Below are positions 15,541-46,349 of a stretch of DNA of 64,000 nt, one piece after another. The notes under the pieces are model-generated. The model was not told the DNA's origin, ran no database searches, and saw only the letters and a program-made list of their open reading frames with translations. The stretch lies in the sequence record NC_055709.1; one strand, written 5' to 3'. Each line of letters opens with the position of its first letter. Within the stretch, counting starts at the first letter, position 1. Source of the stretch: Escherichia phage phiE142. A program made the position numbers and the translations under genes.

Positions 15541-16641
15541 TTACGCTGTGAAGATTTTATCCCACATCGCAACAACTGCATCTCGGTTATACTTCTTCCA
15601 TACTGCTTCAGCACGTTTAACTCGAGCTTCGTACGTGTCAGTGAATTCTAATACAGCTTTTGTGTAAAGCGCAACTACTTCTTTCTTAGGAGTAGAGGAA
15701 TCAATTTCTACACGCACAGTATCTGGGTCATATTCGAATGTCGCATGCGGATAATCCTTAAAAACTAACTGAATTACAGGGACACCTTTAGAAATGGCTT
15801 CAATAGAACTATTCTCTACCGTACCTGTGTCAGGACACGTATTAATAAGTGCTTTAGCTGTTTTAAGACGTTCCATAATTTCACTGTGTGGAGCATCAAT
15901 AATAACAGGATACTTAGCCGGTGGTGCCCATTTGCTTGGACAATAACCAATACCATTTTCGCCTAGTGCTTTAATCGCTTCAAGAGCAACATCAGTACGA
16001 CGCATTTTAGTGTCATAACGTTGTGCACTAATAATCAGATCAGTCGCCGGAAGAACTTCAGGTTTCTCATTCAAACAAATAACCGGATAATCTTCGGCTT
16101 CAAACAACGGATTTGCTCGCCAATAATCATAATCAATTTTGTCAGTCAGACCTGAAGTCATATAACAATATTTGCGTTCAAATTCACGGAAGGCTTTAGT
16201 AGGAGCATAACTCTTACCACCGTTCTTATGAATTTGAATAGTCTGGTCCCAAATTTGAACAATGCCACGAGATACCGGTTCAAATGGTGTTGCCATAAAA
16301 TTCTTATGAACTTTAGAGAGGCCCGCGTCTTTAATTGCCTGAACAGTTAGTTTGGTCGGTTCCATTGTAACAACGAAATCGTACTCATTAATGCCGGCTA
16401 GTTCAACAATCTTACGAGCCATAGTATAACTCATACCTAGACTGAATTTAGTCAGATGACCAACAGGATGATGATTAACCTTCCAATCACCAAATGTGTC
16501 ATTATCAAAACCGATATAATCAATATCGGCACCGATAGAAACTAAATATTTCAACACATTTAAATGTACTGCTTCAAGACCACCTTGTACACGTTCAGGA
16601 TTAAATGGGACTGCACGAGATGGGATAAACATAACTTTCAT
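15541..16641 (-). CDS. GT-B fold glycosyltransferase (GT4-like), candidate DNA sugar transferase
   Basis: 366 aa; N-terminal MKVMFIPSR...GGLEAVHLNVLKYL and C-terminal ENSSIEAISKGVPVIQ resemble GT4 donor-binding motifs; located between rIIA.1 and gene 39. Confidence 0.7.
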   Translation of the reverse strand: MKVMFIPSRAVPFNPERVQGGLEAVHLNVLKYLVSIGADIDYIGFDNDTFGDWKVNHHPVGHLTKFSLGMSYTMARKIVELAGINEYDFVVTMEPTKLTVQAIKDAGLSKVHKNFMATPFEPVSRGIVQIWDQTIQIHKNGGKSYAPTKAFREFERKYCYMTSGLTDKIDYDYWRANPLFEAEDYPVICLNEKPEVLPATDLIISAQRYDTKMRRTDVALEAIKALGENGIGYCPSKWAPPAKYPVIIDAPHSEIMERLKTAKALINTCPDTGTVENSSIEAISKGVPVIQLVFKDYPHATFEYDPDTVRVEIDSSTPKKEVVALYTKAVLEFTDTYEARVKRAEAVWKKYNRDAVVAMWDKIFTA

Positions 16642-28654: not shown

Positions 28655-29176
28655 TTAATATCCGTTGTCCTGGCGTTCAAAGTTGTGTTGGTTTTTCAAG
28701 TAGTAAAGTTTAAAGATTTCTTCAGCAGAAAGACCCAGACCTTGGAACATATTCAGAACAAAGTGCAGAATATCAATCATTTCGAATTTAATTTCGAGCT
28801 GGTCTTCAGGAGACAGTTCATCGATACGACGATTTCGATATTCAGCATGTTGTGCTTTCCATGGCTTCCATACACTGCTGGCGGCTTTTTCACCATTGCT
28901 CATACCACCAAGTGAAGTCAGCAGTTCACGGAATTCATCATCAATATAATCTTTCTGATTACGCAGCCAATCAACAACATCGCCGGCAGTAGCCAATTCA
29001 TCAGGATGTTTGTTATGTTCAGGCTTGTCATTTGCCAGACGAACCTGTAAAGATTTCTGCATATCAAGCATTACCTGCAGTGGGTCTTTATCTTCGTGAA
29101 TCAGAGCATTAAAATAAGCTTCTTCTGCTTTATCAACACCAGAAATAAGTTGTGAACATTCGTTAAAGTGTGCCAT
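28655..29176 (-). CDS. 56: dCTP pyrophosphatase gp56 (MazG-like)
   Basis: Start at MAHFNEC as in T4 gp56; DELATAGDVVDW, EIKFE.IDI.HFVLNMF blocks. Confidence 0.8.
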   Translation of the reverse strand: MAHFNECSQLISGVDKAEEAYFNALIHEDKDPLQVMLDMQKSLQVRLANDKPEHNKHPDELATAGDVVDWLRNQKDYIDDEFRELLTSLGGMSNGEKAASSVWKPWKAQHAEYRNRRIDELSPEDQLEIKFEMIDILHFVLNMFQGLGLSAEEIFKLYYLKNQHNFERQDNGY

Positions 29177-29265
29177 TATTTTTCCTTTCAATTCAGTATA
29201 AGAGAGTTTAATTCTAACATTAATTTTATAAAGCGTAATAAATAATAGGTAACTAAGGAGATATT

Positions 29266-35440: not shown

Positions 35441-35803
35441 TTAAAAGAATTTAAATTTTTTCTTGGTTCGTTCATTAAAAGCTTGTTGTACCTGCATTGT
35501 AACACATTTTTCAACATGTGGTGCAAGTTCTGCTTTTCTGTCCTGGTCAAGAACTGCAAAGTCCATTACGATTTTACCATCAACCCAGTCTAGTTTTGTA
35601 ATATAGACTATATGATGAGAACCGTCTTCAAGTGTAATCAGAATCTCTTGAATGACATTTTCCATTGCTGAACGGATAATTTTAAGAGATTCATTAAACA
35701 CTCGTTCTTTGCGAATGTCTTCCCCTTCCGAAGAAGGGGATTCATCAACGATTTCTAGATTTAAATCATCGAGATTATTCATCGAAATCTTCCATTTCGT
35801 CAA
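35441..35803 (-). CDS. gp40-like protein (120 aa)
   Basis: Positional call between uvsX and 41. Confidence 0.45.
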   Translation of the reverse strand: MTKWKISMNNLDDLNLEIVDESPSSEGEDIRKERVFNESLKIIRSAMENVIQEILITLEDGSHHIVYITKLDWVDGKIVMDFAVLDQDRKAELAPHVEKCVTMQVQQAFNERTKKKFKFF

Positions 35804-36947
35804 GGTCGTTTTCTATATCTGCTGCAGATGGAGCATCAGAAGTTTTAACCGGAACTTTAGTTGTTGCTTTGCAATTAATAAGGTCATTAACAGCGTCATC
35901 AACTTCTTTAATAGAAGAGATAGCACCTAGTTTATATTTAGTTTCAATTGCGTCACGAAAAGGTTTGTGTTTAAACAACGGACCCCAGAATTCTACACAA
36001 TCAGTAGCTTTAGCACGCCACGATTTCTCTTCACGAATCATTTCACCTGTTTCTTCGTCAAGGAATTCACGAGCATACCAACCAGCTTTAGGCTTAACAA
36101 CAAATCCAATTTCAGTTGCCATTTCTAACAAGCCACTGAATGGATCAATACCACCATCAAAATTAACTGTGATTGGGAAAGTAGATTTCTCTTTAACTGT
36201 ACGAGATTTTTCTGCTTTCAACGTGAAGTCATAACCGGTCAATTCTGTACCTTCTTTAACCTGACGTTTAGAGATAAAGAATACAGTGTTAGCAGAGTAA
36301 AGAATACCTGTACCACCACCCATAATCTCTTTAGGATATAGTCCGCCGATTTCCATTGCTGTATGGTTGATTGCAACACATGGAATATCTTTAATAGTCA
36401 GATACGGGGTCACAATACGGAAAAGAGATTTAAGTGCCTTAGCACGAGACATATCACCTACGACTTTCTCGTTCAACGCATCTTCGGTTTCTTTCTTAGA
36501 TGCAGTATTACCGATTGAATCGATAAAGATAATAACTTTATCACCGCGTTCAATTGCATCAAGCTGATTAGTCATATCAACTTTAAGTTGTTCGACAGAT
36601 TGAATCGGAGTATGAACTACACGGTCTAAATCAACACCCATTGAACGAAAATAAGATTCTGAAGCACCAAATTCTGAGTCATAGAACAAACAGATTGCAT
36701 CTTTATATTTCTTCATATAAGCTGCAACCATAGTTAGTCCAAACAATGTTTTAAAATGTTTAGAAGGTGCAGCAAAAATAGTCAAGCCTGATTGCAATCC
36801 TGCATTCAGAGCACCACCTAGTGCAATATTCAACATCGGAATACGAGTAGGGACTTCATCACGATTATTAAACAGCTTAGACTTAGTCAAGTCTGCAGTC
36901 ATTTTAGAAGTAGAAGCTTTAATCAGACGAGATTTTAAATCAGACAT
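35775..36947 (-). CDS. uvsX: UvsX recombinase (RecA-like)
   Basis: 390 aa; MSDLKSRLIKASTSKMTADL... and RecA core match T4 UvsX. Confidence 0.92.
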   Translation of the reverse strand: MSDLKSRLIKASTSKMTADLTKSKLFNNRDEVPTRIPMLNIALGGALNAGLQSGLTIFAAPSKHFKTLFGLTMVAAYMKKYKDAICLFYDSEFGASESYFRSMGVDLDRVVHTPIQSVEQLKVDMTNQLDAIERGDKVIIFIDSIGNTASKKETEDALNEKVVGDMSRAKALKSLFRIVTPYLTIKDIPCVAINHTAMEIGGLYPKEIMGGGTGILYSANTVFFISKRQVKEGTELTGYDFTLKAEKSRTVKEKSTFPITVNFDGGIDPFSGLLEMATEIGFVVKPKAGWYAREFLDEETGEMIREEKSWRAKATDCVEFWGPLFKHKPFRDAIETKYKLGAISSIKEVDDAVNDLINCKATTKVPVKTSDAPSAADIENDLDEMEDFDE

Positions 36948-37046: not shown

Positions 37047-37595
37047 TTAACGAGCCCATTTGATGATTTCTGTAATCAAATCATTACGTTCGCTTGCATT
37101 AAATCCTATAACTTTGTTAGCACCATCATGATTAAGTAATTGATACGTTTGGATTTTGTTATGAATTGCAAACTCTTCAAAATGTGAAATGACTGTATTA
37201 AAACCGAATGAAGACAAAGTAATAAGGTCGTCTTCAAAACTTTCAGTCATTTCGTTACGTGTTAAAATAATTGTGAACACGTCATGGTTTTGGCAAAGAC
37301 GAACATAATCCTGCTCATAAACATCAAGAACCGAGTCAGCATCTTGTCGAATACGTCCATAAACCCAGTTACTAATATATCCACGGTCTAACAGATAAAT
37401 CTTAGTAGGGTCTAAATAATTCAACATCGTTTCGAAACAGCCAACTTCATTTCGAGACTTAACATCGAAACGTCCATCAACTGTTCGTTTAGGGAAATCA
37501 ATCTTTACATATCTTTCACTAATTTCCATTATGTCATTAATGAAAGTTGTTTTACCAGCATTATCCGGGCCATCTACTAAAATAATTTTAGCCAT
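37047..37595 (-). CDS. P-loop kinase-fold protein (NMP/sugar kinase-like)
   Basis: Walker A ILVDGPDNAGKTT at N-terminus, 182 aa; occupies part of the T4 beta-gt slot. Confidence 0.55.
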   Translation of the reverse strand: MAKIILVDGPDNAGKTTFINDIMEISERYVKIDFPKRTVDGRFDVKSRNEVGCFETMLNYLDPTKIYLLDRGYISNWVYGRIRQDADSVLDVYEQDYVRLCQNHDVFTIILTRNEMTESFEDDLITLSSFGFNTVISHFEEFAIHNKIQTYQLLNHDGANKVIGFNASERNDLITEIIKWAR

Positions 37596-37596
37596 T

Positions 37597-38496
37597 TTAT
37601 TCCTCGATTACGACATCTTCGTATTTAGGTATATTATACGGCGAAGAAATTAAAGCATTAAAGTAGATGAACTCACCAAGACCTGGATGGAATACTTCTT
37701 CAGGATTTTCGAAATATTGAATCTTCGGACGTCCTTTAAGAATTTGGTAGTACTCAGTTTTAGTTGGTTTAAAAATTCTAATCAGCGCTTCTTCAGGATA
37801 CTTATTTCTGTCGAAGCTATTATTTGGATCGGTTATATAAAGCGGTTGACCTAATTGAATTGCACATTCAACCACTTGTTCAAAATGATAACACGGATCA
37901 CTAATTCGAAATGGATGAAAAATACCATCTACATGAATAGGAGCCAAATCACCTACAAGACGCTGCATGATGGAAGGACGTATAACTTTCTGCGTTACGA
38001 TAATCTTATTATCATCTGCGCCAGCGTTAACCAGCACTTCCTTTTGACGTTTATTCAACACAGTTGTTTGGATTGAACGATTAACCGACAACATGTCGGT
38101 TTTTAAGAATTCGTCAATATAAAAACGTGGTTTATTAGGGTCTGCAGTGATATTGAAATTGAATTCTACATCAAAAGCGCCGTCATATCCAGTGATATCT
38201 GTGATTAGAAAATCACAATCATAATAAGCAATTAATGAATCAACCACAAATTCATTTTCAGACCAGAAATATTTACGGGTGTTATACGCGTTATCTTTAT
38301 ACCATAATGGAACAAACTTAAATTCTGGAAAAAGACGTTCGCATTCTTTAATATCAGATGCATTACGTGGATATGTAATCACATCACCCGGATTAGCACG
38401 GTGCAAATGAAGTTGGAAGTTGCCATCCTTAAGGATAGCATACTGTCCAGTTTCATAAGACCGCATACTCAAGATAGGTACGCGGAAAATAGCCAT
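37597..38496 (-). CDS. Hypothetical protein (299 aa) in the beta-gt slot
   Basis: No recognisable motif; translationally coupled to flanking genes. Confidence 0.5.
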   Translation of the reverse strand: MAIFRVPILSMRSYETGQYAILKDGNFQLHLHRANPGDVITYPRNASDIKECERLFPEFKFVPLWYKDNAYNTRKYFWSENEFVVDSLIAYYDCDFLITDITGYDGAFDVEFNFNITADPNKPRFYIDEFLKTDMLSVNRSIQTTVLNKRQKEVLVNAGADDNKIIVTQKVIRPSIMQRLVGDLAPIHVDGIFHPFRISDPCYHFEQVVECAIQLGQPLYITDPNNSFDRNKYPEEALIRIFKPTKTEYYQILKGRPKIQYFENPEEVFHPGLGEFIYFNALISSPYNIPKYEDVVIEE

Positions 38497-39212
38497 TAGT
38501 CAAGGAATCCTTTAACATAATCAAAATCACGTTCAAACACATGGGCACTTACCATGGTATGAGTATAATCACCAACTTCTACACCGCATTCGTTAGCGAT
38601 ATAATGAAGTAATTTTCCTTGGAGATAAAAATCCAACTGCATAACAACAGCACAGTTCTGAGAACGCATATGACAGTGGGTATAAAGCTTACCATCACGA
38701 ATATAATAAGTCACTGAGTCAGTACATGGATATTCAAGCGTTTCATCCGAATCAAGCAAAGCCTGATCAGAACTTTCTAGAATTTGGAACACAACTCTTC
38801 GAGAGTTAGGCTTCTCTTTAAGTTCTTTTAGAAGAGCTGGTAATTGGGCCGCAATGCGAGGACCATAGAAAGTGTTGAAGTTCGCCGGCAAAACATCTGA
38901 TTTTGGTTTAGAAATAAATTTAGCGACATTAGGATATGCCTTAAACGCTTCTTCTGCGTTGGTACCACCAGAAATCATAAACTTCCAGAAGTCTTCGGCA
39001 TATTCATAAGAGATGCGGTTAATACGTGGGTCGGTCATTTTGAATGATGATGGAGTGTCAACAACTACTGTCATAGACCCAATTTCATTACAACGTCCAA
39101 TACGAGAATCAGTTACGAATTCCGGGTTTTCTAAAATTTCACGATTGACTGCTTTAAATGCGGTTTGAAAATCTGCGGCTTTGATATATTTCATTGTGTT
39201 ATGTTTTCCCAT
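38496..39212 (-). CDS. 42: dCMP hydroxymethylase gp42-like (thymidylate synthase fold)
   Basis: PCTDSVTYYIRDGKL...HMRSQN block parallels T4 gp42 CTNTVQYLIRDKK...NMRSND; 238 aa. Confidence 0.65.
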   Translation of the reverse strand: MGKHNTMKYIKAADFQTAFKAVNREILENPEFVTDSRIGRCNEIGSMTVVVDTPSSFKMTDPRINRISYEYAEDFWKFMISGGTNAEEAFKAYPNVAKFISKPKSDVLPANFNTFYGPRIAAQLPALLKELKEKPNSRRVVFQILESSDQALLDSDETLEYPCTDSVTYYIRDGKLYTHCHMRSQNCAVVMQLDFYLQGKLLHYIANECGVEVGDYTHTMVSAHVFERDFDYVKGFLD

Positions 39213-39254
39213 GTTTACCTCAATACAATTTATTATATACTCAATTCGTAAAGC

Positions 39255-39494
39255 TTATTTGAATTTCTTGACAATGTTGATATAACGTAAAGCTTCAGCA
39301 TCGATACTTCCAAGAACACTATGAAGAAATGCATCAGCGTAGTATTCCAATTGAACAGGTTCTTTAATCACTTTAGCCGCTTTAGTTTCAAAAAGGCCCA
39401 TCAGGGCCTTTTTAAGAATTTGTTCATTAGTGTTCAGTTTCATAGTCAAAATCTCTTCATTAAGTTGGTGGTTAAAAGTTTTTCTAGAAATCAT
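39255..39494 (-). CDS. Hypothetical protein (79 aa)
   Basis: ORF only. Confidence 0.45.
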   Translation of the reverse strand: MISRKTFNHQLNEEILTMKLNTNEQILKKALMGLFETKAAKVIKEPVQLEYYADAFLHSVLGSIDAEALRYINIVKKFK

Positions 39495-40666
39495 TCCGGG
39501 TATCTCAAAGCGTCATCAGAGTTAGTTATATCAATAATAGATATAGAGTTTTCTGCTAACCCGTTTTTAGATAATTGACGTTTATAATATCTTTCACAAT
39601 ATGTACACGTCGTCCCGCAGATTTCATTAGCACAATCGAAATCTGGATGTCTGAACCACCTTTTTTCTAAAAAGCCATCTAACAAAGAGGTTTCAATATT
39701 TACTGTATGTGAAAACTCAGTCTCATTTTCAAGAGTGAAAATAGTCTCTAAAGGCTTCCACAGTTCTAACAAATTACCTTCAAACTTTTCAGAAGCGTAT
39801 GCTTCAAGAACTTTCAAAATGTAGTCTGTGCTACCTGTACGTCCTGAAACTTTGAATTGAGTGATACCAATATCATTATAAAGTTTCAAATCTTGAGGAC
39901 GAACAAAACGAGTTCTCAACCAGTTAAATGGGTCTGTATCACGAGCTTTAATACAGTGCTGCATAGGATATCCGTTTAAGGATTTAGCATCATCAGCGGT
40001 AACATCAGTACTATGGAAAATATAGCAAGAGTCACGATAGCTACAATGTGTTGTATACCCTTTACCAGCATTAGAACAGAACTCATTTACAAGAACTTCA
40101 AATATTATATTGTTCTTATTGCAAAACTCTGCTGCACGCTTCAGGAAAGAAACTGAACGGTTCTTATGAATTCCACAGCAGACCTTTTTGATATTATACT
40201 GGTCATGCAAGTATTTGATTTGAGTTACAGCATCGACATGTAGAATTGTTGAAACTTCAATCTCAATGTCTTTATTGACTTCACGAACAATTTCCATAAC
40301 AACAGGGTTAGCGATAGTAATACGCCATACGCCTATTGACCAAAGATACTGAACATAATCCTGAATAGCTTTCTTCTTCCACTCAACTAGTTCTCTTTTT
40401 GAACCAGGATTTATCGTGTTGAGTGTATAGTTAAAGCAAATACCTAATTCGTTACAACGTTTAACGTAATCTTCTAACATCTTTTTGTCAACGTCAGGAA
40501 GCCTAAAATCAGGTCTGGCTGCTACAAAAGCCATTTCTCTTGTAGAGCCATATACTTCGTTTATCAAGCTATTAGGATAAGTTTTATTGAGCTCTACGAT
40601 TTTATCGAGAAGAGCTAAATCAAAATTCGTTCCGATTTTAAAAGTATTCATTTTTTTGCATCTCAC
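39491..40666 (-). CDS. Cys-cluster protein (391 aa), possible Fe-S/metal enzyme
   Basis: C-terminal CANEICGTTCTYC (Cx4Cx3Cx2C) plus further Cys; no confident family assignment. Confidence 0.5.
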   Translation of the reverse strand: MRCKKMNTFKIGTNFDLALLDKIVELNKTYPNSLINEVYGSTREMAFVAARPDFRLPDVDKKMLEDYVKRCNELGICFNYTLNTINPGSKRELVEWKKKAIQDYVQYLWSIGVWRITIANPVVMEIVREVNKDIEIEVSTILHVDAVTQIKYLHDQYNIKKVCCGIHKNRSVSFLKRAAEFCNKNNIIFEVLVNEFCSNAGKGYTTHCSYRDSCYIFHSTDVTADDAKSLNGYPMQHCIKARDTDPFNWLRTRFVRPQDLKLYNDIGITQFKVSGRTGSTDYILKVLEAYASEKFEGNLLELWKPLETIFTLENETEFSHTVNIETSLLDGFLEKRWFRHPDFDCANEICGTTCTYCERYYKRQLSKNGLAENSISIIDITNSDDALRYPE

Positions 40667-40708
40667 GTTAATTGATGCGATGGTTTTTTGCAGGTCTTAC
40701 TTAAATTA

Positions 40709-41110
40709 TTATAGATTCGGTTTATATGATTTAAATGTTTCGAATTCGCCTTTATTCATAAGAGCTTTGAATTCGTCAGGACGCATAGCTTTGTCGTCGA
40801 TAATCCAATCATATACTGGTTTATGTGTTAGCAAATTATGGTACTTCAAGCCAATGTTTGCCAAGTTCTGAATCAGACTTGGGAGAATGTCAATTGCTAT
40901 ACGACCAGGACCTACTGACTTCATACCGCGAGCAGTGTAAAGCGTTATGGTATGCCCTGCATCATACAGGGCATTAATGGCAGTCACCATTTCGACGTCC
41001 GGTTTGAAGTTCACGTAATCACGATTGTTATTCCACTCTGTTATACAATCATCGACGTCAAAACAAAGATTAAGCATGTTTTCTACACGGTGCATTAGAT
41101 TCGTTCCCAT
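40709..41110 (-). CDS. HAD-like phosphatase
   Basis: 133 aa; N-terminal FDVDDCIT (DxD-type motif I, non-canonical), TARG motif II-like, WIIDDKA motif IV-like. Confidence 0.5.
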   Translation of the reverse strand: MGTNLMHRVENMLNLCFDVDDCITEWNNNRDYVNFKPDVEMVTAINALYDAGHTITLYTARGMKSVGPGRIAIDILPSLIQNLANIGLKYHNLLTHKPVYDWIIDDKAMRPDEFKALMNKGEFETFKSYKPNL

Positions 41111-42780
41111 TGATGAGTGATATCGCCACCGATTGGACGATAGGAAACACCAGTTTCTTTATCAGTTAGTACCCATTTACCAGGATTTTTTGTAATCAGA
41201 GTAGCCGTTACAGGTTCTGCTACGTCATAACTAATAGAGCCATCTTGAAGTACACGGCCCATGTTACGTAATTGCTTAGTCAGAAGTTCCATACCTTTAT
41301 AATATGCGGCCACCGCTTTAAGTGGATTATTCTTGAAATAACCACCTAATGCAATCCAGATAATTGCCACTGCCAAATGATGATACTCGTTAAACGAACT
41401 CATCTTTCCATATTTGTAAACTAATGGATTGATGTTAATAGTCACATTACAAGTTGTTTCATCAATAGTAAACTGGCCCCAGGTCGGATTAGCGTTGAAT
41501 TCATCATAACCTGAAACAGCATAAAGCACTTTAGCTTCATCATACAATTTTGGCCCGTAAATCTTGGTTTCGCCAAAATATCCACGAGGGTCGATAAACT
41601 TGACTTCGCCGTTATCAGTAATCATAGTATTACTGAAGTTCGGGTCACCGTGAATAACAGAGTACTGTCCCTGAGAACGGTTATGATAACGAATAAGATG
41701 TTCTAAAGCTTGTTTCAACATTGGCTTCAGACGTCCAATCTTAGTGTAGTTCACGTGTGTGATTTTACCAAATGAATCAATCAATGGCTGAATGCTTTCA
41801 CAACGATCAATAACTTTCGTATAGAACTCTTTAGTGAAATCACGACGAACAGTTTCAGGACTTACAAAATAAGTGTCTGTGCTGAATTTCAGTGCATCTA
41901 AAATTGCATCAACAATTTGTGGACGAGCAAGACTTGATTTGGATTTAATATATTCAAATGCCGGCTTACCTTTAATACGTTCCATTTCAAAATTATTTTC
42001 ATTTACCGAAACTAACTGAGGAACCGAATCTGATTTCACTTTCAAATACCATGAAATCTCATCTTTTTGAAGAGCTCGACCTTGTTCGGTTAACGCGAAT
42101 TTAGTTACAGTTTCTTCGCCAATTTCAACTGCATTAAAACTACGATTAAGTTCACGAACTTCATGAGCTTTTTCAAGTTTAGGCATATCACCTAAATCAA
42201 TTAGATTCATAAGCTCTGATTTATTGAATGCGCTGCTGTAAAGGAATTCTACGAAATCACGTCCTTTGCAGTATTCATGAATTTCCTCATCAGTAGAACC
42301 CATATAGAATTCCCAGTCTTTGAACTGATAAATTCCTACAACATTACCGCCTGTTGCACCTACATTAGTGATATTTTCACCGTCGAAATTATATCGACAT
42401 TCGTCACCCTTAACATAGATTGCGTTAACATTCCAAGACCATGAACCAAAATCAGGAATAATATCGCACCAGTTAACAACTACGTTATGCCTGTCTAAAT
42501 CTTTGTGTAATTTAGCAAGAGCATAAGCAGAACCATACGCTTCATCAACTGTACGAATAGTCACATTGAACCCTTCTTGCTCACAATAAGCTCGAACGGT
42601 TTCAGCAAATTTTGAATGAACTACTACAATAATTTCATCTGCGCCAAGGTCAGAATAAATTGTATACAAATTGCTCAGAATAGTGTCTTGTTTATAGTTA
42701 ACAAGCACCTTAGGAATATGATGCGTTATTGGATACAAACGAGTTGCCAGTCCAGCACCAAGAATAACAGCTTTTTTCAT
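41095..42780 (-). CDS. Bifunctional sugar-1-phosphate nucleotidyltransferase / APH-type kinase
   Basis: N-terminus KAVILGAGLATRLYPIT (RmlA/GlmU-type); C-terminus VIHGDPNFSNTMI...FIDPRG (aminoglycoside/choline kinase catalytic loop). Confidence 0.7.
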   Translation of the reverse strand: MKKAVILGAGLATRLYPITHHIPKVLVNYKQDTILSNLYTIYSDLGADEIIVVVHSKFAETVRAYCEQEGFNVTIRTVDEAYGSAYALAKLHKDLDRHNVVVNWCDIIPDFGSWSWNVNAIYVKGDECRYNFDGENITNVGATGGNVVGIYQFKDWEFYMGSTDEEIHEYCKGRDFVEFLYSSAFNKSELMNLIDLGDMPKLEKAHEVRELNRSFNAVEIGEETVTKFALTEQGRALQKDEISWYLKVKSDSVPQLVSVNENNFEMERIKGKPAFEYIKSKSSLARPQIVDAILDALKFSTDTYFVSPETVRRDFTKEFYTKVIDRCESIQPLIDSFGKITHVNYTKIGRLKPMLKQALEHLIRYHNRSQGQYSVIHGDPNFSNTMITDNGEVKFIDPRGYFGETKIYGPKLYDEAKVLYAVSGYDEFNANPTWGQFTIDETTCNVTININPLVYKYGKMSSFNEYHHLAVAIIWIALGGYFKNNPLKAVAAYYKGMELLTKQLRNMGRVLQDGSISYDVAEPVTATLITKNPGKWVLTDKETGVSYRPIGGDITHQWERI

Positions 42781-42961
42781 GTTGTGGTCCTCATTGGTAA
42801 GTAGGAGTATTGTACACTATTCTAGTTAAAGCATTCATACTTTGCTTGTAGTCCAATCATAATCCATCCAATTACAAGTGTTGGAATCATTACCGGAGCC
42901 GTTAAGCTCCAGTAGATAGTCATGACAAGCATCAATAGTAAAAGTCCTATTGTTATTGCTT

Positions 42962-43597
42962 TCATTGTTCGCCTCGTAACATGGCACCTAGTGCACCGCC
43001 TGGATGGAACTTAAGGAAATCATTAGAGGTAAATCCACGTTCAGACGAAAGGTTGATAGCAAACGTATCGATAAGCGCTAACAACAATGTAGTGGACATT
43101 GTCGGAGCTAAAGAGTTCTCGTCAACTTCTACCGCGATACCAGTACAGAACGTATAATCAAAAAGAGCTTCGTATTCTTGTGGAATGTCAGGGTTACAAT
43201 GTAACAGAATCTGTTTAACCTGAGGACGAATCATACGAAGATGTTTAGCAACACCTATCATTTCTTCAGTCTTACCAGAACGACTAATATGAATCAACAC
43301 ATCATTAGGCGCAATGAATCCTGCATCACCGTGAGAATAATGCCCAGTGTTCAAGTACATACTCGGGATACCGAGTGAAGCAAATGTCTCAGAAGCTTTA
43401 GTTGCGATATTAGCGTTCTTACCAACACCTGTAATAATTACACGACTTTCATAATTACTCAGTCCTGGGCGTCGAAGAGTTTCTAGAATAGCATTATAAC
43501 GAGCAGGGTTTTGACTAATTACTTTGGCCATAGCGGCCAAAGAAGAAGCTTGTTTTATGATTGCGTCAATAGCGATAGTAATAGGAGTAGTTTTCAT
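42962..43597 (-). CDS. SIS-domain sugar-phosphate isomerase (KdsD/GutQ-like arabinose-5-phosphate isomerase)
   Basis: ITGVGKNANIATKASETFASLGIPS...HGD...LIHISRSGKTEE SIS motifs; 211 aa, no CBS domains. Confidence 0.7.
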   Translation of the reverse strand: MKTTPITIAIDAIIKQASSLAAMAKVISQNPARYNAILETLRRPGLSNYESRVIITGVGKNANIATKASETFASLGIPSMYLNTGHYSHGDAGFIAPNDVLIHISRSGKTEEMIGVAKHLRMIRPQVKQILLHCNPDIPQEYEALFDYTFCTGIAVEVDENSLAPTMSTTLLLALIDTFAINLSSERGFTSNDFLKFHPGGALGAMLRGEQ

Positions 43598-43637: not shown

Positions 43638-46349
43638 TCAAAAATCGAACATATCGAATAGAGATGCTTTCTTCTCGTAATCGAGTTTCGCTGCTGATGT
43701 GAATCCTTCAAGTGGTTTAATAAATGTCTTCTCAAGGAGAACAGTGTAGTCCATCCAATGAAGTACGTCGTCTTTAATTAAATCTGTGATTTCAGTACCA
43801 GAAGGCCATGCGATACATTTATCACCGAATGGGTTTCCTTCACGTAAAGGCAGAACATATACTTTTTCACCTTCTACAACTTGTGGAGCATCAATATTAC
43901 CTTTGATAGCCCGGTTATACGTCAGAATTCCACGAATATGGAACGGACATTTGGGACCAGGGAATCCACCTACATCATATTTAGCAATGTTATTCGCAGA
44001 AGATACCGACGCGATGCTAATATAATTCAATTGACGGAATTCTTTTTCAAACTCTTTAAAATATTCTTGTAATGATTCTTCACCTTCTTGAAGCATACGA
44101 CGAATACATTCTTTAAGAGCTTTCTGTACCGCTTTAGGAGTTGAAGATTTCTGTGTTTCGAGACCCATGATTTTGAGTTTAGGCTCAGCGTAACGAGTAC
44201 CTTCCATATCCCACACGTTTAATGCATAACGTTTCTTACCAGTCCAGAATCCGCCAATACCTTTAGAACCAAGCGGAGGACCAGCGATAGCTTCTCGGTC
44301 CATGAACATTAAGTGTTGTTTATTGTTCATGTATTCACACATTTCACGGAAACCTTTATCAATAGCTGGTTCCATACGTTCACGTGCGAACTTATCTAAG
44401 AAGTCTACCCAATGGTTGGTATCACGGAATTTAGATTCACCAACCTTATCGATAATTTTATCAGCAGATACGTAAATAGAGTCTGTATCACCATAAAGAA
44501 CGAAAGCTTCACCTTCTGTACCACAAACTTCATTCAGATATTCATTAACTTTACGTTCAATCCACTGTAAAGCCATTTGCCCGAATGTTGTGATTGCAGT
44601 AGCATTACGCAAATCGTAATAACGGAACCATACGTTACCAAGTGCACCATAAAGCGAGTTGATAAGCAATTTACGGTTAATTTGTGCAGTCATACCTGCA
44701 ACTTCAGTACGTTGAGCTCTAAACAACATTTCATTAAGAGATTTAGCAGACAACTTTTTAATCTTTTCTTTAATCTCATCGCTGAAGTCGAAACGATAAT
44801 CAACATCTAATGGTTCGTCAACAGAAAGATTAGGATTATGCAATGCCTCTTTAATTATTTCACCATTACGTTGAGCTGCAAGCATGTAACCTTTATGTTC
44901 TTTACGCTGATTAAAGACCTTAGTGATTTCAGTTGGAACTACACCGTCACGGTCTTTATAATACATCATGCCGTTAGGAGAGCAACTGTACACATCTGAA
45001 GGACGTTCAGCGATTGCGTTAATATAATCATGCAGTGGAGCTACTTTAAACGTTCCTGCTATTGTTTCCGGGCTAATATTCACTTGGCGAATAATACTTG
45101 GATACAGAGACGTAAGGTCGAAACTCATTACATATTTGTATCGATTTGGAATAGGTTCCTTAACAAAAGCGCCAGGATAAGGTTGAACCGGGTGAGAACG
45201 ACCTTGTGGAATCACCTTGTTTTGTTCTTTAAGGCTATTAAAAATAATAGCATCCCAAGTTTTAATTGGACTGAACACAGATTGAATCTGAATTTTAGCA
45301 TAATAACCCATGTCCAAGCTCAAGTTGATGAACTGACGCTTAGAATCAATTTGCAATACACGATACACGTCGATAATGTTATAAGAAATATATCGTTGGT
45401 GATTGCTTTCACGAAGCTTAGAAATAGGGCCGTCATATTTCAGTTTACCAATGTTCAATTCAAATTCTGAAATGTAATCCAGAGAATACGACGGTTGATT
45501 GGTAAAAGAGAATTTTTTGTAAAGGTCAATGTAATCAAGAACAGAGATACCGAACAATGTAATGATTTCACGAGAACCATACATGTTTTCGATAACTTTA
45601 ACACGAGTTTTACGATGTGGTGATAAACGTTTCGCAGTAGATTCGCCAAAAATATTCTTGATTCGGTTATACACATATGGAATATCAAATGACTCAACGT
45701 TCCATCCAGTCAAAATGACAGGAGTTTTCTGTTGCCAGAAGTTGAGATATTCCATCAACAATTCTTTTTCGTTATCGAACGGCATATAAATGATTTTATC
45801 GATAATTTCGGACGGAACTTCATCACCACCTTGTTCTTGAAGCTTAGCAGCGATTTCAATAGACCATTCTTCCACATTACCATATGGAGAATTCAATAGA
45901 TCAAATACGTAGAACCTGTCGTCAATTGAGTCATAATGGGTGATAGCATCAATCGGATGTTTTGCTTGTGACGGCTCAGGGAATCCATCCGGAGATGTTA
46001 CTTCGATGTCGAAGTTAGCCACACGAATTTTTGTATGGTCGTATTTGATTTCATAGTTATAAGTGTCAGACAAATACGCCAATTTGAAATCGTCCATGCC
46101 AAGTGCTTCAAGACCGATATCTTCCATGCGTTTAATCCATTGAGACGCATCACGCATATTAGCGAACAACTTACGAGTACACGGCTTACCGTAGATATCG
46201 AAATATTTCGTAGCCTGACTTTCTGGACAATGAGCAAACAGTGATGGTTTATATTCTACTTCACGAGTACGTTCACGGCCATTAGAATCGATGTAACGTT
46301 CAAAAATTGAATCACCAATCTGTTCAACCGTTAAGTAAAATTCTTTCAT
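43638..46349 (-). CDS. 43: DNA polymerase gp43 (family B), RB69-type
   Basis: 903 aa; sequence matches RB69 gp43 as I recall it from structural literature, including exo motifs FDIEV and YNIIDV and YGDTDS. Confidence 0.95.
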   Translation of the reverse strand: MKEFYLTVEQIGDSIFERYIDSNGRERTREVEYKPSLFAHCPESQATKYFDIYGKPCTRKLFANMRDASQWIKRMEDIGLEALGMDDFKLAYLSDTYNYEIKYDHTKIRVANFDIEVTSPDGFPEPSQAKHPIDAITHYDSIDDRFYVFDLLNSPYGNVEEWSIEIAAKLQEQGGDEVPSEIIDKIIYMPFDNEKELLMEYLNFWQQKTPVILTGWNVESFDIPYVYNRIKNIFGESTAKRLSPHRKTRVKVIENMYGSREIITLFGISVLDYIDLYKKFSFTNQPSYSLDYISEFELNIGKLKYDGPISKLRESNHQRYISYNIIDVYRVLQIDSKRQFINLSLDMGYYAKIQIQSVFSPIKTWDAIIFNSLKEQNKVIPQGRSHPVQPYPGAFVKEPIPNRYKYVMSFDLTSLYPSIIRQVNISPETIAGTFKVAPLHDYINAIAERPSDVYSCSPNGMMYYKDRDGVVPTEITKVFNQRKEHKGYMLAAQRNGEIIKEALHNPNLSVDEPLDVDYRFDFSDEIKEKIKKLSAKSLNEMLFRAQRTEVAGMTAQINRKLLINSLYGALGNVWFRYYDLRNATAITTFGQMALQWIERKVNEYLNEVCGTEGEAFVLYGDTDSIYVSADKIIDKVGESKFRDTNHWVDFLDKFARERMEPAIDKGFREMCEYMNNKQHLMFMDREAIAGPPLGSKGIGGFWTGKKRYALNVWDMEGTRYAEPKLKIMGLETQKSSTPKAVQKALKECIRRMLQEGEESLQEYFKEFEKEFRQLNYISIASVSSANNIAKYDVGGFPGPKCPFHIRGILTYNRAIKGNIDAPQVVEGEKVYVLPLREGNPFGDKCIAWPSGTEITDLIKDDVLHWMDYTVLLEKTFIKPLEGFTSAAKLDYEKKASLFDMFDF

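Follow-up and report, generated by a model that had tools for sequence, protein, structure and literature searches.

In the 5-hydroxymethylcytosine (hmC) glucosylation system of phage T4, a ThyA-family enzyme (gp42) acts on deoxycytidine monophosphate (dCMP) ahead of replication, GT-B glycosyltransferases (alpha-gt and beta-gt) then decorate the new hydroxyl from host uridine diphosphate (UDP)-glucose, and a dCTPase removes the canonical nucleotide. A second system, the Afh cassette of phages RB69 and HY126 (He et al. 2026; Lee et al. 2026; Mahler et al. 2025; Thomas et al. 2018), deals in arabinose. Arabinose was detected on RB69 DNA and candidate genes were proposed in 2018 (Thomas et al. 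2018), parts of the pathway were reconstituted biochemically in 2025-2026 (Lee et al. 2026 and works cited there), and liquid chromatography-mass spectrometry (LC-MS) and nuclear magnetic resonance (NMR) identified arabinosyl-5-hydroxycytosine in the virion DNA of RB69 (Lee et al. 2026) and of Mosigvirus NP. The RB69 base carries one or two arabinoses and is joined to the sugar by an ether bond through the C5 oxygen (Lee et al. 2026). Here we analyse a 64,000-nucleotide stretch of Escherichia phage phiE142 (NC_055709.1), hereafter the window, which comes from a relative of these phages. The interval between its uvsX gene and its DNA polymerase gene 43 very probably encodes the Mosigvirus machinery that replaces virion cytosine with mono- and di-arabinosylated 5-hydroxycytosine, through a base arm, a sugar arm, a transfer arm, and a further arm built around a U32-family protein for which we tentatively propose a role below.

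RB69-type arabinosylation, its gene cluster, and most of its enzyme steps are already published, as the work on RB69 and HY126 and the PDB entries near identical to proteins of the window make clear. The phiE142 locus differs in no material way from the Afh cassette: it has the same genes in the same order (SIS isomerase, nucleotidyltransferase-kinase fusion, HAD phosphatase, U32 protein, ThyA-type hydroxylase, glycosyltransferase, and P-loop kinase) and, elsewhere in the window, a homologue of RB69 ORF003c. A first-pass annotation, made from the letters alone, had proposed that the phage makes its own nucleotide-arabinose to glycosylate DNA instead of drawing on host UDP-glucose. That proposal agrees with the published work, in which the SIS, HAD, and nucleotidyltransferase-kinase proteins are the right enzymes (Lee et al. 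2026); the accompanying view that the steps were not biochemically established is overtaken by the 2018 gene proposals and the reconstitutions of 2025-2026. Profile hidden Markov model (HMM) and structure searches backed most of the family assignments in that annotation, and its overall interpretation was right in outline.

The cassette lies on the minus strand, bounded by uvsX (35775-36947) and the gp43 DNA polymerase gene (43638-46349). The eight minus-strand genes that had been counted here are all present with exactly the coordinates first given, to which a ninth, small open reading frame (ORF) must be added; it lies at 42835-42987 between the SIS and nucleotidyltransferase genes, encodes 50 amino acids (about 47-50), and has no Pfam match. 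Small genes are annotated at the same position in HY126 (locus L003 of our set, 2690-2833) and in Serratia phage LC53 (L002, 2130-2273, "transmembrane segment"). The comparison with the slots of T4 also stands, the equivalent T4 interval reading uvsX, segA, beta-gt, 42, imm, imm.1, 43. GC content across the cassette region is uniform (0.34-0.40). The window belongs to a Mosigvirus, its 6.5-kb region being 98.8% identical to phage phiC120; the cassette is collinear with that of HY126 over 6.5 kb at 96.4% DNA identity, with each protein 96-99.7% identical, and the three proteins compared with RB69 (U32, hydroxylase, and nucleotidyltransferase-kinase) are 98.9-99.2% identical. At least 80% of the cassette region is covered by 150 phage records, and 153 records show 95-99% identity to it. 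The cassette is a genuine conserved gene cluster and no chance set of ORFs.

The base arm centers on the 238-amino-acid protein encoded at 38496-39212, the homologue of RB69 gp48, which matches Pfam Thymidylat_synt at 56.9 bits and is about 98% identical to PDB entries 9iqc, 9ir2, and 9iqu (E 1e-157 to 1e-161). Its earlier description as a gp42-like dCMP hydroxymethylase has to be given up. Identity to T4 gp42 is 25%, and the protein has neither the close similarity to gp42 nor the Asp at the position of E. coli ThyA residue 169 that mark the T4 enzyme. In the alignment, D169 is replaced by Asn and N177 by Asp (RSQN...QLD, against RSND...RND in T4 and RSCD...PFN in E. coli); the former is the signature of 5-hydroxy-dCMP (5hodCMP) synthases, and the latter goes with a preference for dCMP (Lee et al. 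2026). In vivo, RB69 gp48 makes 5-hydroxydeoxycytidine (5hodC, 243 Da) and not 5-hydroxymethyldeoxycytidine (5hmdC), takes its oxygen from 18O2, and binds flavin mononucleotide (FMN) (Lee et al. 2026). Judged by its sequence, the window protein is a flavin- and O2-dependent dCMP 5-hydroxylase.

In the mechanism that we favor, this ThyA homologue turned to flavin/O2 chemistry would place a hydroxyl on C5 of dCMP, a reaction demonstrated with RB69 gp48 and its HY126 counterpart. The product would then be raised to the triphosphate by kinases, presumably the P-loop kinase of the cassette together with the gp1-type deoxynucleoside monophosphate (dNMP) kinase of the phage (the latter shown for RB69), and the phage polymerase would incorporate the modified triphosphate. 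The overall plan would follow that of T4, with a ThyA-family enzyme working on dCMP before replication and GT-B enzymes working afterward on the new hydroxyl. It would depart from T4 in that the hydroxyl is set directly on C5 by flavin and O2 rather than by way of methylene-tetrahydrofolate, in that the sugar is arabinofuranose, and in that the donor is made by the phage.

The P-loop kinase fold assigned to the 182-amino-acid protein at 37047-37595 (RB69 gp45) is supported by a match to PHROG 761 "thymidylate kinase" (1.6e-45), a Walker A motif (GPDNAGKT, residue 9), and a weak match to TIGR00041; a PDB sequence search gave nothing useful. The part that it had been lent in the sugar route falls away. 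Table 1 of Lee et al. 2026 lists gp45 as "nucleotide kinase" on the basis of structural matches, and a P-loop kinase is found in every T4-like cassette, at varying positions. Because the equivalent P-loop genes of phages DLP3 and RL38J1 also adjoin the hydroxylase gene (Lee et al. 2026), the gene context suggests that the substrate is a nucleotide rather than a sugar, probably the modified dNMP. A further minus-strand gene at 28655-29191, whose product matches Pfam dUTPase_2 at 29.4 bits and PRA-PH weakly, is a weak candidate for a gp56-type dCTP pyrophosphatase (dCTPase) by analogy with RB69p028, listed as dCTPase in the same Table 1; such an enzyme would clear canonical dCTP and thereby let the modified base take the place of cytosine.

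The sugar arm would begin with the 211-amino-acid SIS protein at 42962-43597, homologous to RB69 gp55. Its assignment to the KdsD/GutQ type is upheld by Pfam SIS (39.8 bits, cut-off 25), by the NCBIfam models for KpsF/GutQ (111 bits, cut-off 203) and KdsD (106 bits, cut-off 505), and by PDB matches to 3etn (6.8e-25), 5uqi (1.3e-22), and E. coli KdsD 2xhz (1.4e-18). Lack of the CBS pair keeps the scores below the KdsD and KpsF/GutQ equivalog cut-offs, and in this respect the protein resembles the single-domain 3etn and 5uqi rather than E. coli KdsD and GutQ, with which it shares a homologous SIS domain and the predicted reaction. It is predicted to be a single-domain arabinose-5-phosphate isomerase variant converting ribulose-5-phosphate to arabinose-5-phosphate (Ara5P), the step to which the RB69 gp55-type SIS protein has been assigned (Lee et al. 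2026); its product would feed UDP-arabinose and not 3-deoxy-D-manno-octulosonate (KDO).

The following steps would fall to two proteins, a 561-amino-acid fusion at 41095-42780 (RB69 ORF53_52c) and a 133-amino-acid HAD-type phosphatase at 40709-41110 (RB69 gp51). The N-terminus of the fusion matches Pfam NTP_transferase over residues 3-100 (39.9 bits, cut-off 21.2) and carries GAGLATRL, a GxGxxxR signature, at residue 8; the protein reaches none of the RmlA, GalU, or MurU equivalog cut-offs, so the call is made at the level of the family. Its C-terminus has the kinase motifs HxDxxxxN and DxxG as HGDPNFSN at residue 377 and IDPRG at residue 396, and its homologue is said to match the structures 3ham and 6hwl (Lee et al. 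2026). The HAD-like phosphatase call is borne out by a near-identical PDB entry (9iqw, 2e-87), a more distant one (1xpj, 6.7e-10), and the DVDDC motif with its DxD nucleophile at residue 18; TIGR01689, a capsule biosynthesis phosphatase model, is matched at 49 bits, under its cut-off, and Pfam returns no match. In HY126, the counterpart AfhE is a bifunctional Ara5P kinase, yielding arabinose-1,5-bisphosphate, and UDP-arabinose pyrophosphorylase, and AfhF is a Mg-dependent phosphatase that converts arabinose-1,5-bisphosphate to arabinose-1-phosphate (Ara1P), according to Lee et al. 2026, who cite He et al. 2026.

The window fusion is 96.3% and the HAD protein 99.2% identical to their HY126 counterparts, and at 96-99% identity we infer that the AfhE and AfhF steps carry over. 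The C-terminal kinase of the fusion would phosphorylate Ara5P to arabinose-1,5-bisphosphate, the HAD enzyme would strip the 5-phosphate to leave Ara1P, and the N-terminal nucleotidyltransferase would join Ara1P and UTP to give UDP-arabinofuranose (UDP-Araf). The order first suggested, through free arabinose, does not agree with the published one, which runs from Ara5P through arabinose-1,5-bisphosphate and Ara1P to UDP-Araf with no free arabinose. A cluster feeding KDO or capsule synthesis, as the KdsD-like and "capsule biosynthesis phosphatase" matches might suggest, was considered and rejected, since KdsA and KdsB are absent and the published DNA chemistry accounts for the genes. The fusion gene and the 299-amino-acid glycosyltransferase gene discussed next are each a single intact ORF in the window. 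The RB69 record AY303349 (2003) divides them into ORF052c/053c and ORF046c/047c, which the literature puts down to single-base sequencing errors; Thomas et al. 2018 merged the frameshifted ORF053c/052c into a single 561-amino-acid protein.

The 299-amino-acid protein of the transfer arm (37597-38496, RB69 gp46:47), previously listed as an unknown among the genes of donor synthesis, has no Pfam match and no PDB sequence match. Its AlphaFold model, built with 28 homologues, has a predicted local distance difference test score (pLDDT) of 93.8 and a predicted template modeling score (pTM) of 0.89 and shows the two Rossmann domains of a GT-B fold. The Foldseek matches, including MshA 3c4q (query-normalized TM-score, TMq, 0.61), sucrose-phosphate synthase 6kih (0.64), and 7fg9 (0.60), are all GT-B enzymes or UDP-sugar (UDP-GlcNAc) 2-epimerases. 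The model points to a GT-B glycosyltransferase, predicted to be the first, base-proximal arabinosyltransferase and standing outside donor synthesis. A second predicted arabinosyltransferase is encoded on the minus strand at 15541-16641, 98.9% identical over 366 amino acids to RB69 ORF003c, a gene near rIIA whose product was proposed for this function by Thomas et al. 2018 and Lee et al. 2026. Both gp46:47 and gp3 are predicted arabinosyltransferases in Lee et al. 2026, and DLP3 glycosyltransferases use UDP-Araf on RB69 DNA in vitro (Lee et al. 2026). PDB entry 9ir0, "phage HY126 glycosyltransferase with UDP" (367 amino acids), was among the matches and, by its length and title only, is a possible counterpart of 15541-16641. 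On this evidence the 299-amino-acid enzyme would add the first arabinose to the 5-hydroxyl, and the ORF003c homologue would add the second.

A few points weigh against this account of the cassette. The C-terminus of the fusion reaches Pfam APH at 14.4 bits, under the 23.2 cut-off, with several kinase families at E 0.002-0.03; in the original call (RmlA-type nucleotidyltransferase fused to APH-type kinase), it is the nucleotidyltransferase half that clears its threshold. The AfhE and AfhF activities are taken second-hand from Lee et al. 2026, the assignment of the first arabinosyltransferase is a prediction, and single DLP3 glycosyltransferases were inactive on 5-hydroxycytosine (5hoC) DNA in vitro (Lee et al. 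2026). The scheme of the first-pass annotation, in which a gp42-type hydroxymethylase yields hmC, Ara5P passes through arabinose and Ara1P to a nucleoside diphosphate arabinose, and the product is arabinosyl-hmC, could draw on Thomas et al. 2018, which reported arabinosyl-hmC from high-performance anion-exchange chromatography (HPAEC) and matrix-assisted laser desorption/ionization (MALDI) data, and on Table 1 of Lee et al. 2026, whose labels still reflect that older scheme; the enzyme families present could in principle run the free-arabinose order. We consider it highly improbable nonetheless, given the D169N replacement and low identity to gp42 in the ThyA homologue, the 5hodC rather than 5hmdC made by RB69 gp48, the ether link at C5-O established by NMR and mass spectrometry, which makes the RB69 base arabosyl-5-hydroxycytosine rather than arabinosyl-hmC (Lee et al. 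2026), and the HY126 kinase and phosphatase that work on Ara5P and arabinose-1,5-bisphosphate, respectively (as relayed in the same paper).

Two genes of the cassette remain, and these may bear on how it might work without oxygen. The 391-amino-acid product of 39491-40666 (RB69 gp50; HY126 gene at PP658200.1 108517-109677) had been singled out as a Cys-cluster protein. The cluster is real: ten Cys are invariant in a 24-member alignment of the subfamily, including a C-terminal CX4CX3CX2C group, and the protein belongs to the U32 family (Pfam Peptidase_U32, 42.2 bits, cut-off 22.4), but it has no role in the sugar route for which it had been enlisted. U32 proteins RlhA (5-hydroxycytidine 2501, ho5C2501, of 23S rRNA), TrhP (5-hydroxyuridine 34, ho5U34, of tRNA), and UbiU/UbiV are iron-sulfur proteins that work in a prephenate-dependent, O2-independent manner, with prephenate donating the oxygen in the case of UbiU/UbiV. 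Residues E190, C208, and C214 of the window protein share alignment columns with TrhP E162, C170, and C177 and with RlhA E161, C169, and C176, which are essential for hydroxylation at pyrimidine C5 in published work; RlhA also requires additional C-terminal cysteines, and the window protein has such a cluster. Identity to the E. coli U32 paralogues is 16-19%. The structural model (pLDDT 89) has as its top PDB fold match 5d88, a U32 protein, beyond which Foldseek returned generic TIM barrels, with no UbiU/UbiV, TrhP, or RlhA structure among the matches listed; a PDB sequence search gave nothing useful. Pfam finds the U32 domain alone; RlhA and TrhP have in addition DUF3656 and C-terminal domains, which the window protein lacks.

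From these features and from the gene neighborhoods described below, we tentatively propose, with somewhat less than even confidence, that the U32 protein, presumably an iron-sulfur protein, is a prephenate-dependent, O2-independent C5 hydroxylase of deoxycytidine nucleotides or DNA. Together with a translationally coupled partner of 79 amino acids it would provide 5-hydroxycytosine under oxygen shortage, alongside the O2-dependent ThyA-type enzyme, so that the phage would have two routes to the same base, the flavin/O2 route in air and the U32 route in the anoxic gut. The pairing resembles that of bacteria, in which TrhO and TrhP, or UbiI/H/F and UbiU/V, carry out the same reaction with and without O2. 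Relative to RlhA and TrhP, the phage protein shares the U32 domain, the essential Glu and two Cys, and an extra C-terminal Cys cluster as in RlhA, and it is without the DUF3656/RNA-binding extension, the predicted substrate being a deoxycytidine nucleotide or DNA rather than rRNA or tRNA.

The recurrent company of the U32 gene fits a prephenate-using enzyme. The U32 stop codon of LC53 and Thanatos-2 is overlapped by the gene for a chorismate mutase that scores above the Pfam cut-off, and an HMM built from chorismate mutases of this type finds one after U32, directly or past a small ORF, in 14 of 15 T4-like IMG/VR loci. The pairing recurs in jumbo-phage contigs in which the U32 protein is 46-50% identical, and in other relatives a 3-deoxy-D-arabino-heptulosonate 7-phosphate (DAHP) synthase, or a fusion of DAHP synthase and chorismate mutase, adjoins U32. 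In Thanatos-2 (L004, 6001-7391), the U32-chorismate mutase pair follows the P-loop kinase and directly precedes uvsX. The U32 gene of the window comes after the HAD gene and ahead of the hydroxylase gene; from this difference in position the pair appears to move as a two-gene unit.

In the window, this place is taken by the 79-amino-acid ORF at 39255-39494 (minus strand; RB69 ORF049c; PHROG 8601, 6e-52), with a 4-nt overlap at the U32 stop codon, and the overlap suggests that it is probably co-translated with U32. Its position is that of the chorismate mutase in LC53 and Thanatos-2, and a decayed chorismate mutase was therefore considered. This was rejected because four loci (L009, L014, L017, and L022) carry a homologous small ORF between U32 and a separate chorismate mutase; the window ORF also has no CM_2 match at E up to 1. 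The chorismate mutase of the LC53 type (L002, 6158-6502, 114 amino acids; also in L016 and L018) has an N-terminal extension, MRRINHTMNEL..., resembling the N-terminus of the 79-amino-acid ORF (MISRKTFNHQLNEE..., MNRINHKLNEEL...), which hints that the small ORF and the mutase gene were fused in the LC53 lineage. In the HY126 record, the homologue of the small ORF is broken by two 1-nt insertions (L003, 6161-6402; 40 amino acids annotated), either a sequencing error or a sign of dispensability; it is intact in the window.

More distant loci extend the picture. We collected U32 loci outside the T4-like phages from IMG/VR, metagenomes, and GTDB genomes, grouped them into 29 lineages at 95% identity, and surveyed the neighbors within 8 kb on each side. 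A glycosyltransferase of the same family as the 299-amino-acid enzyme (GT299) is near U32 in 16 of the 29, an AfhE-like nucleotidyltransferase-kinase in nine, a SIS isomerase in five, and a chorismate mutase or DAHP synthase in nine. Compact operons occur among them, one consisting of glycosyltransferase, SIS, nucleotidyltransferase-kinase, U32, and DAHP synthase genes (L007) and another of HAD, glycosyltransferase, SIS, nucleotidyltransferase-kinase, and U32 genes (L037). A ThyA-family gene is found near U32 in a single lineage, and it is taken as an ordinary thymidylate synthase because it retains D169 and N177; a ThyA-type hydroxylase was found in none of the 29, the check being limited to 8 kb. 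In many uncultivated viruses of this kind, apparently of anaerobes, which combine the same glycosyltransferase family with UDP-arabinose genes, U32 would be the only hydroxylase. Examples of the non-T4-like viruses are the contigs IMGVR_UViG_3300045988_147269, _074298, and _170924, and the pair of glycosyltransferase and U32 genes is also found at a locus on scaffold17 of Phocaeicola faecalis FXJYN30E22.

Across T4-like genera, U32 is the most conserved protein of the cassette, at 79-89% identity, compared with 65-79% for gp43, 65-74% for gp41, 42-72% for the nucleotidyltransferase-kinase, 47-72% for GT299, and 38-73% for the P-loop kinase. By tblastn, U32 is present in 220 phage records, none of them below 80% identity, and the hosts of these phages are Enterobacterales and Shewanella. 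The ten names most frequent among the matches do not include Acinetobacter, and the hydroxylase is present in 65 Acinetobacter records and the nucleotidyltransferase-kinase in 57; phage Maestro, whose host Acinetobacter is an aerobe, has the cassette without U32. Twelve U32 matches in GTDB genomes come mostly from metagenome-assembled genomes (MAGs) of anaerobic lineages (Erysipelotrichales, Oscillospiraceae, Romboutsia, Tannerella, Phocaeicola, Clostridium, and Gastranaerophilaceae). A strict rule, that U32 occurs only in phages of facultative anaerobes and is absent from those of aerobes, was tried and is partly supported: Maestro fits it, and Dhakavirus WG01 of E. coli, which lacks U32, breaks it.

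Two other readings of the U32 protein have to be set against the proposed hydroxylase. Databases annotate it as "peptidase U32" or "collagenase-like protease", collagenolytic activity has been reported for some U32 proteins, and Table 1 of Lee et al. 2026 labels gp50 "sugar or heterocycle reductase"; a peptidase or reductase unrelated to base hydroxylation, engaged in protein processing or sugar tailoring, would also sit well with the cassettes that do without it, in Dhakaviruses, in Maestro, and in DLP3, whose cluster gp76-83 lists no such protein. We think this unlikely, since the subfamily keeps its ten invariant Cys and the Glu and two Cys essential in TrhP and RlhA, since the repeated pairing with chorismate mutase or DAHP synthase makes sense only for an enzyme that uses prephenate, and since its neighbors are genes of nucleotide metabolism and DNA glycosylation rather than structural genes or genes for protease substrates. 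A second possibility is that the protein is a prephenate-dependent hydroxylase of RNA (host or phage tRNA or rRNA) or of some other small molecule rather than of a DNA cytosine precursor. Every characterized nucleic-acid U32 enzyme acts on RNA, T4-like phages encode tRNAs, and in several phage genera arabinosyl-5hoC can be made without U32. Against these stand the missing DUF3656 and C-terminal domains, the embedding of the gene in a DNA-modification cassette beside the dCMP hydroxylase gene, and the distant lineages in which U32 abuts a GT299-family gene, often along with UDP-arabinose genes and with no ThyA-type hydroxylase within 8 kb; we rate an RNA or small-molecule substrate as unlikely too, slightly more so than the peptidase or reductase.

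The proposed DNA-directed hydroxylase has difficulties of its own. The window encodes no chorismate mutase anywhere (the best match, at E=5.5e-4, is spurious), and the phage would therefore depend on host PheA/TyrA for prephenate. Because Dhakaviruses of E. coli such as WG01 have the cassette without U32, the protein is dispensable for the modification as such, and DLP3, too, makes arabinosylated 5hoC with its cluster gp76-83 (Lee et al. 2026). The lack of a ThyA-type hydroxylase in the distant viruses holds within the 8 kb surveyed, the contrast between aerobes and anaerobes is confounded by phylogeny, and the binning of viral contigs into MAGs is unreliable. In vitro, direct hydroxylase activity has been demonstrated for no U32 protein, and the published label for gp50 names a different activity. 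Beyond that label in Lee et al. 2026, the literature searched contained no treatment of gp50 and made no connection between phage 5hoC and either U32 or prephenate; two papers outside that search, He et al. 2026 and Mahler et al. 2025, may do so.

If the proposal is true, the phage protein would be the first of the prephenate-dependent hydroxylases known to act on DNA, and it would explain how gut phages keep an O2-requiring DNA modification under anoxia, a matter that bears on phage therapy and on the evasion of defenses in the gut. It would also serve as a marker gene for glycosylated 5-hydroxypyrimidine DNA in phages of anaerobes, and such DNA would have a far wider distribution than the T4-like phages that first revealed it.

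Several U32 neighborhoods differ from that of the window. In LC53 (L002, 4352-4990), a gene annotated "putative endonuclease" is inserted between the HAD and U32 genes; this is possibly a homing endonuclease, and as such could help account for both the mobility and the high conservation of the U32 module. On a 466-kb JGI contig (L005, 5447-7086), U32 overlaps a dCMP deaminase gene and adjoins genes for DNA polymerase III alpha and uracil-DNA glycosylase (UDG). In another locus (L006, 6001-12360), genes for NT5C, a nicotinamide mononucleotide (NMN) transporter, and a deoxynucleoside kinase come after U32, and the neighborhood also includes a radical S-adenosylmethionine (SAM) gene, a second gene of U32 type, and one for a nucleoside deoxyribosyltransferase. 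These two contexts may point to 5-hydroxyuracil or other base chemistry. Downstream of U32 in a further locus (L029, 9101-9994) is a gene with a weak match (E 1e-4, under the cut-off) to the TET-associated DNA glycosyltransferases (TAGT).

Public annotations of the cassette are inconsistent and mostly misleading, and the practical value of reading it as an arabinosylation pathway lies in correcting them. The nucleotidyltransferase-kinase goes under "GlmU". The HAD protein appears as "phosphoheptose isomerase" and as "capsule biosynthesis protein", the hydroxylase as "dCMP hydroxymethylase" and as "thymidylate synthase", and the U32 protein as "peptidase" and as "collagenase-like protease"; "thymidylate kinase" is also among the labels given to genes of the cassette, and the LC53 and Thanatos-2 records label the glycosyltransferase "RNA polymerase binding protein". 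Elsewhere on the minus strand of the window, a 219-amino-acid ORF at 31208-31867 matches Pfam AdfA (Anti-DarT factor A, 5e-119), an anti-defense gene directed against the DarTG toxin-antitoxin system, and a 154-amino-acid ORF at 27194-27658 matches the Pfam T4_MRH-like protein family (4e-38).

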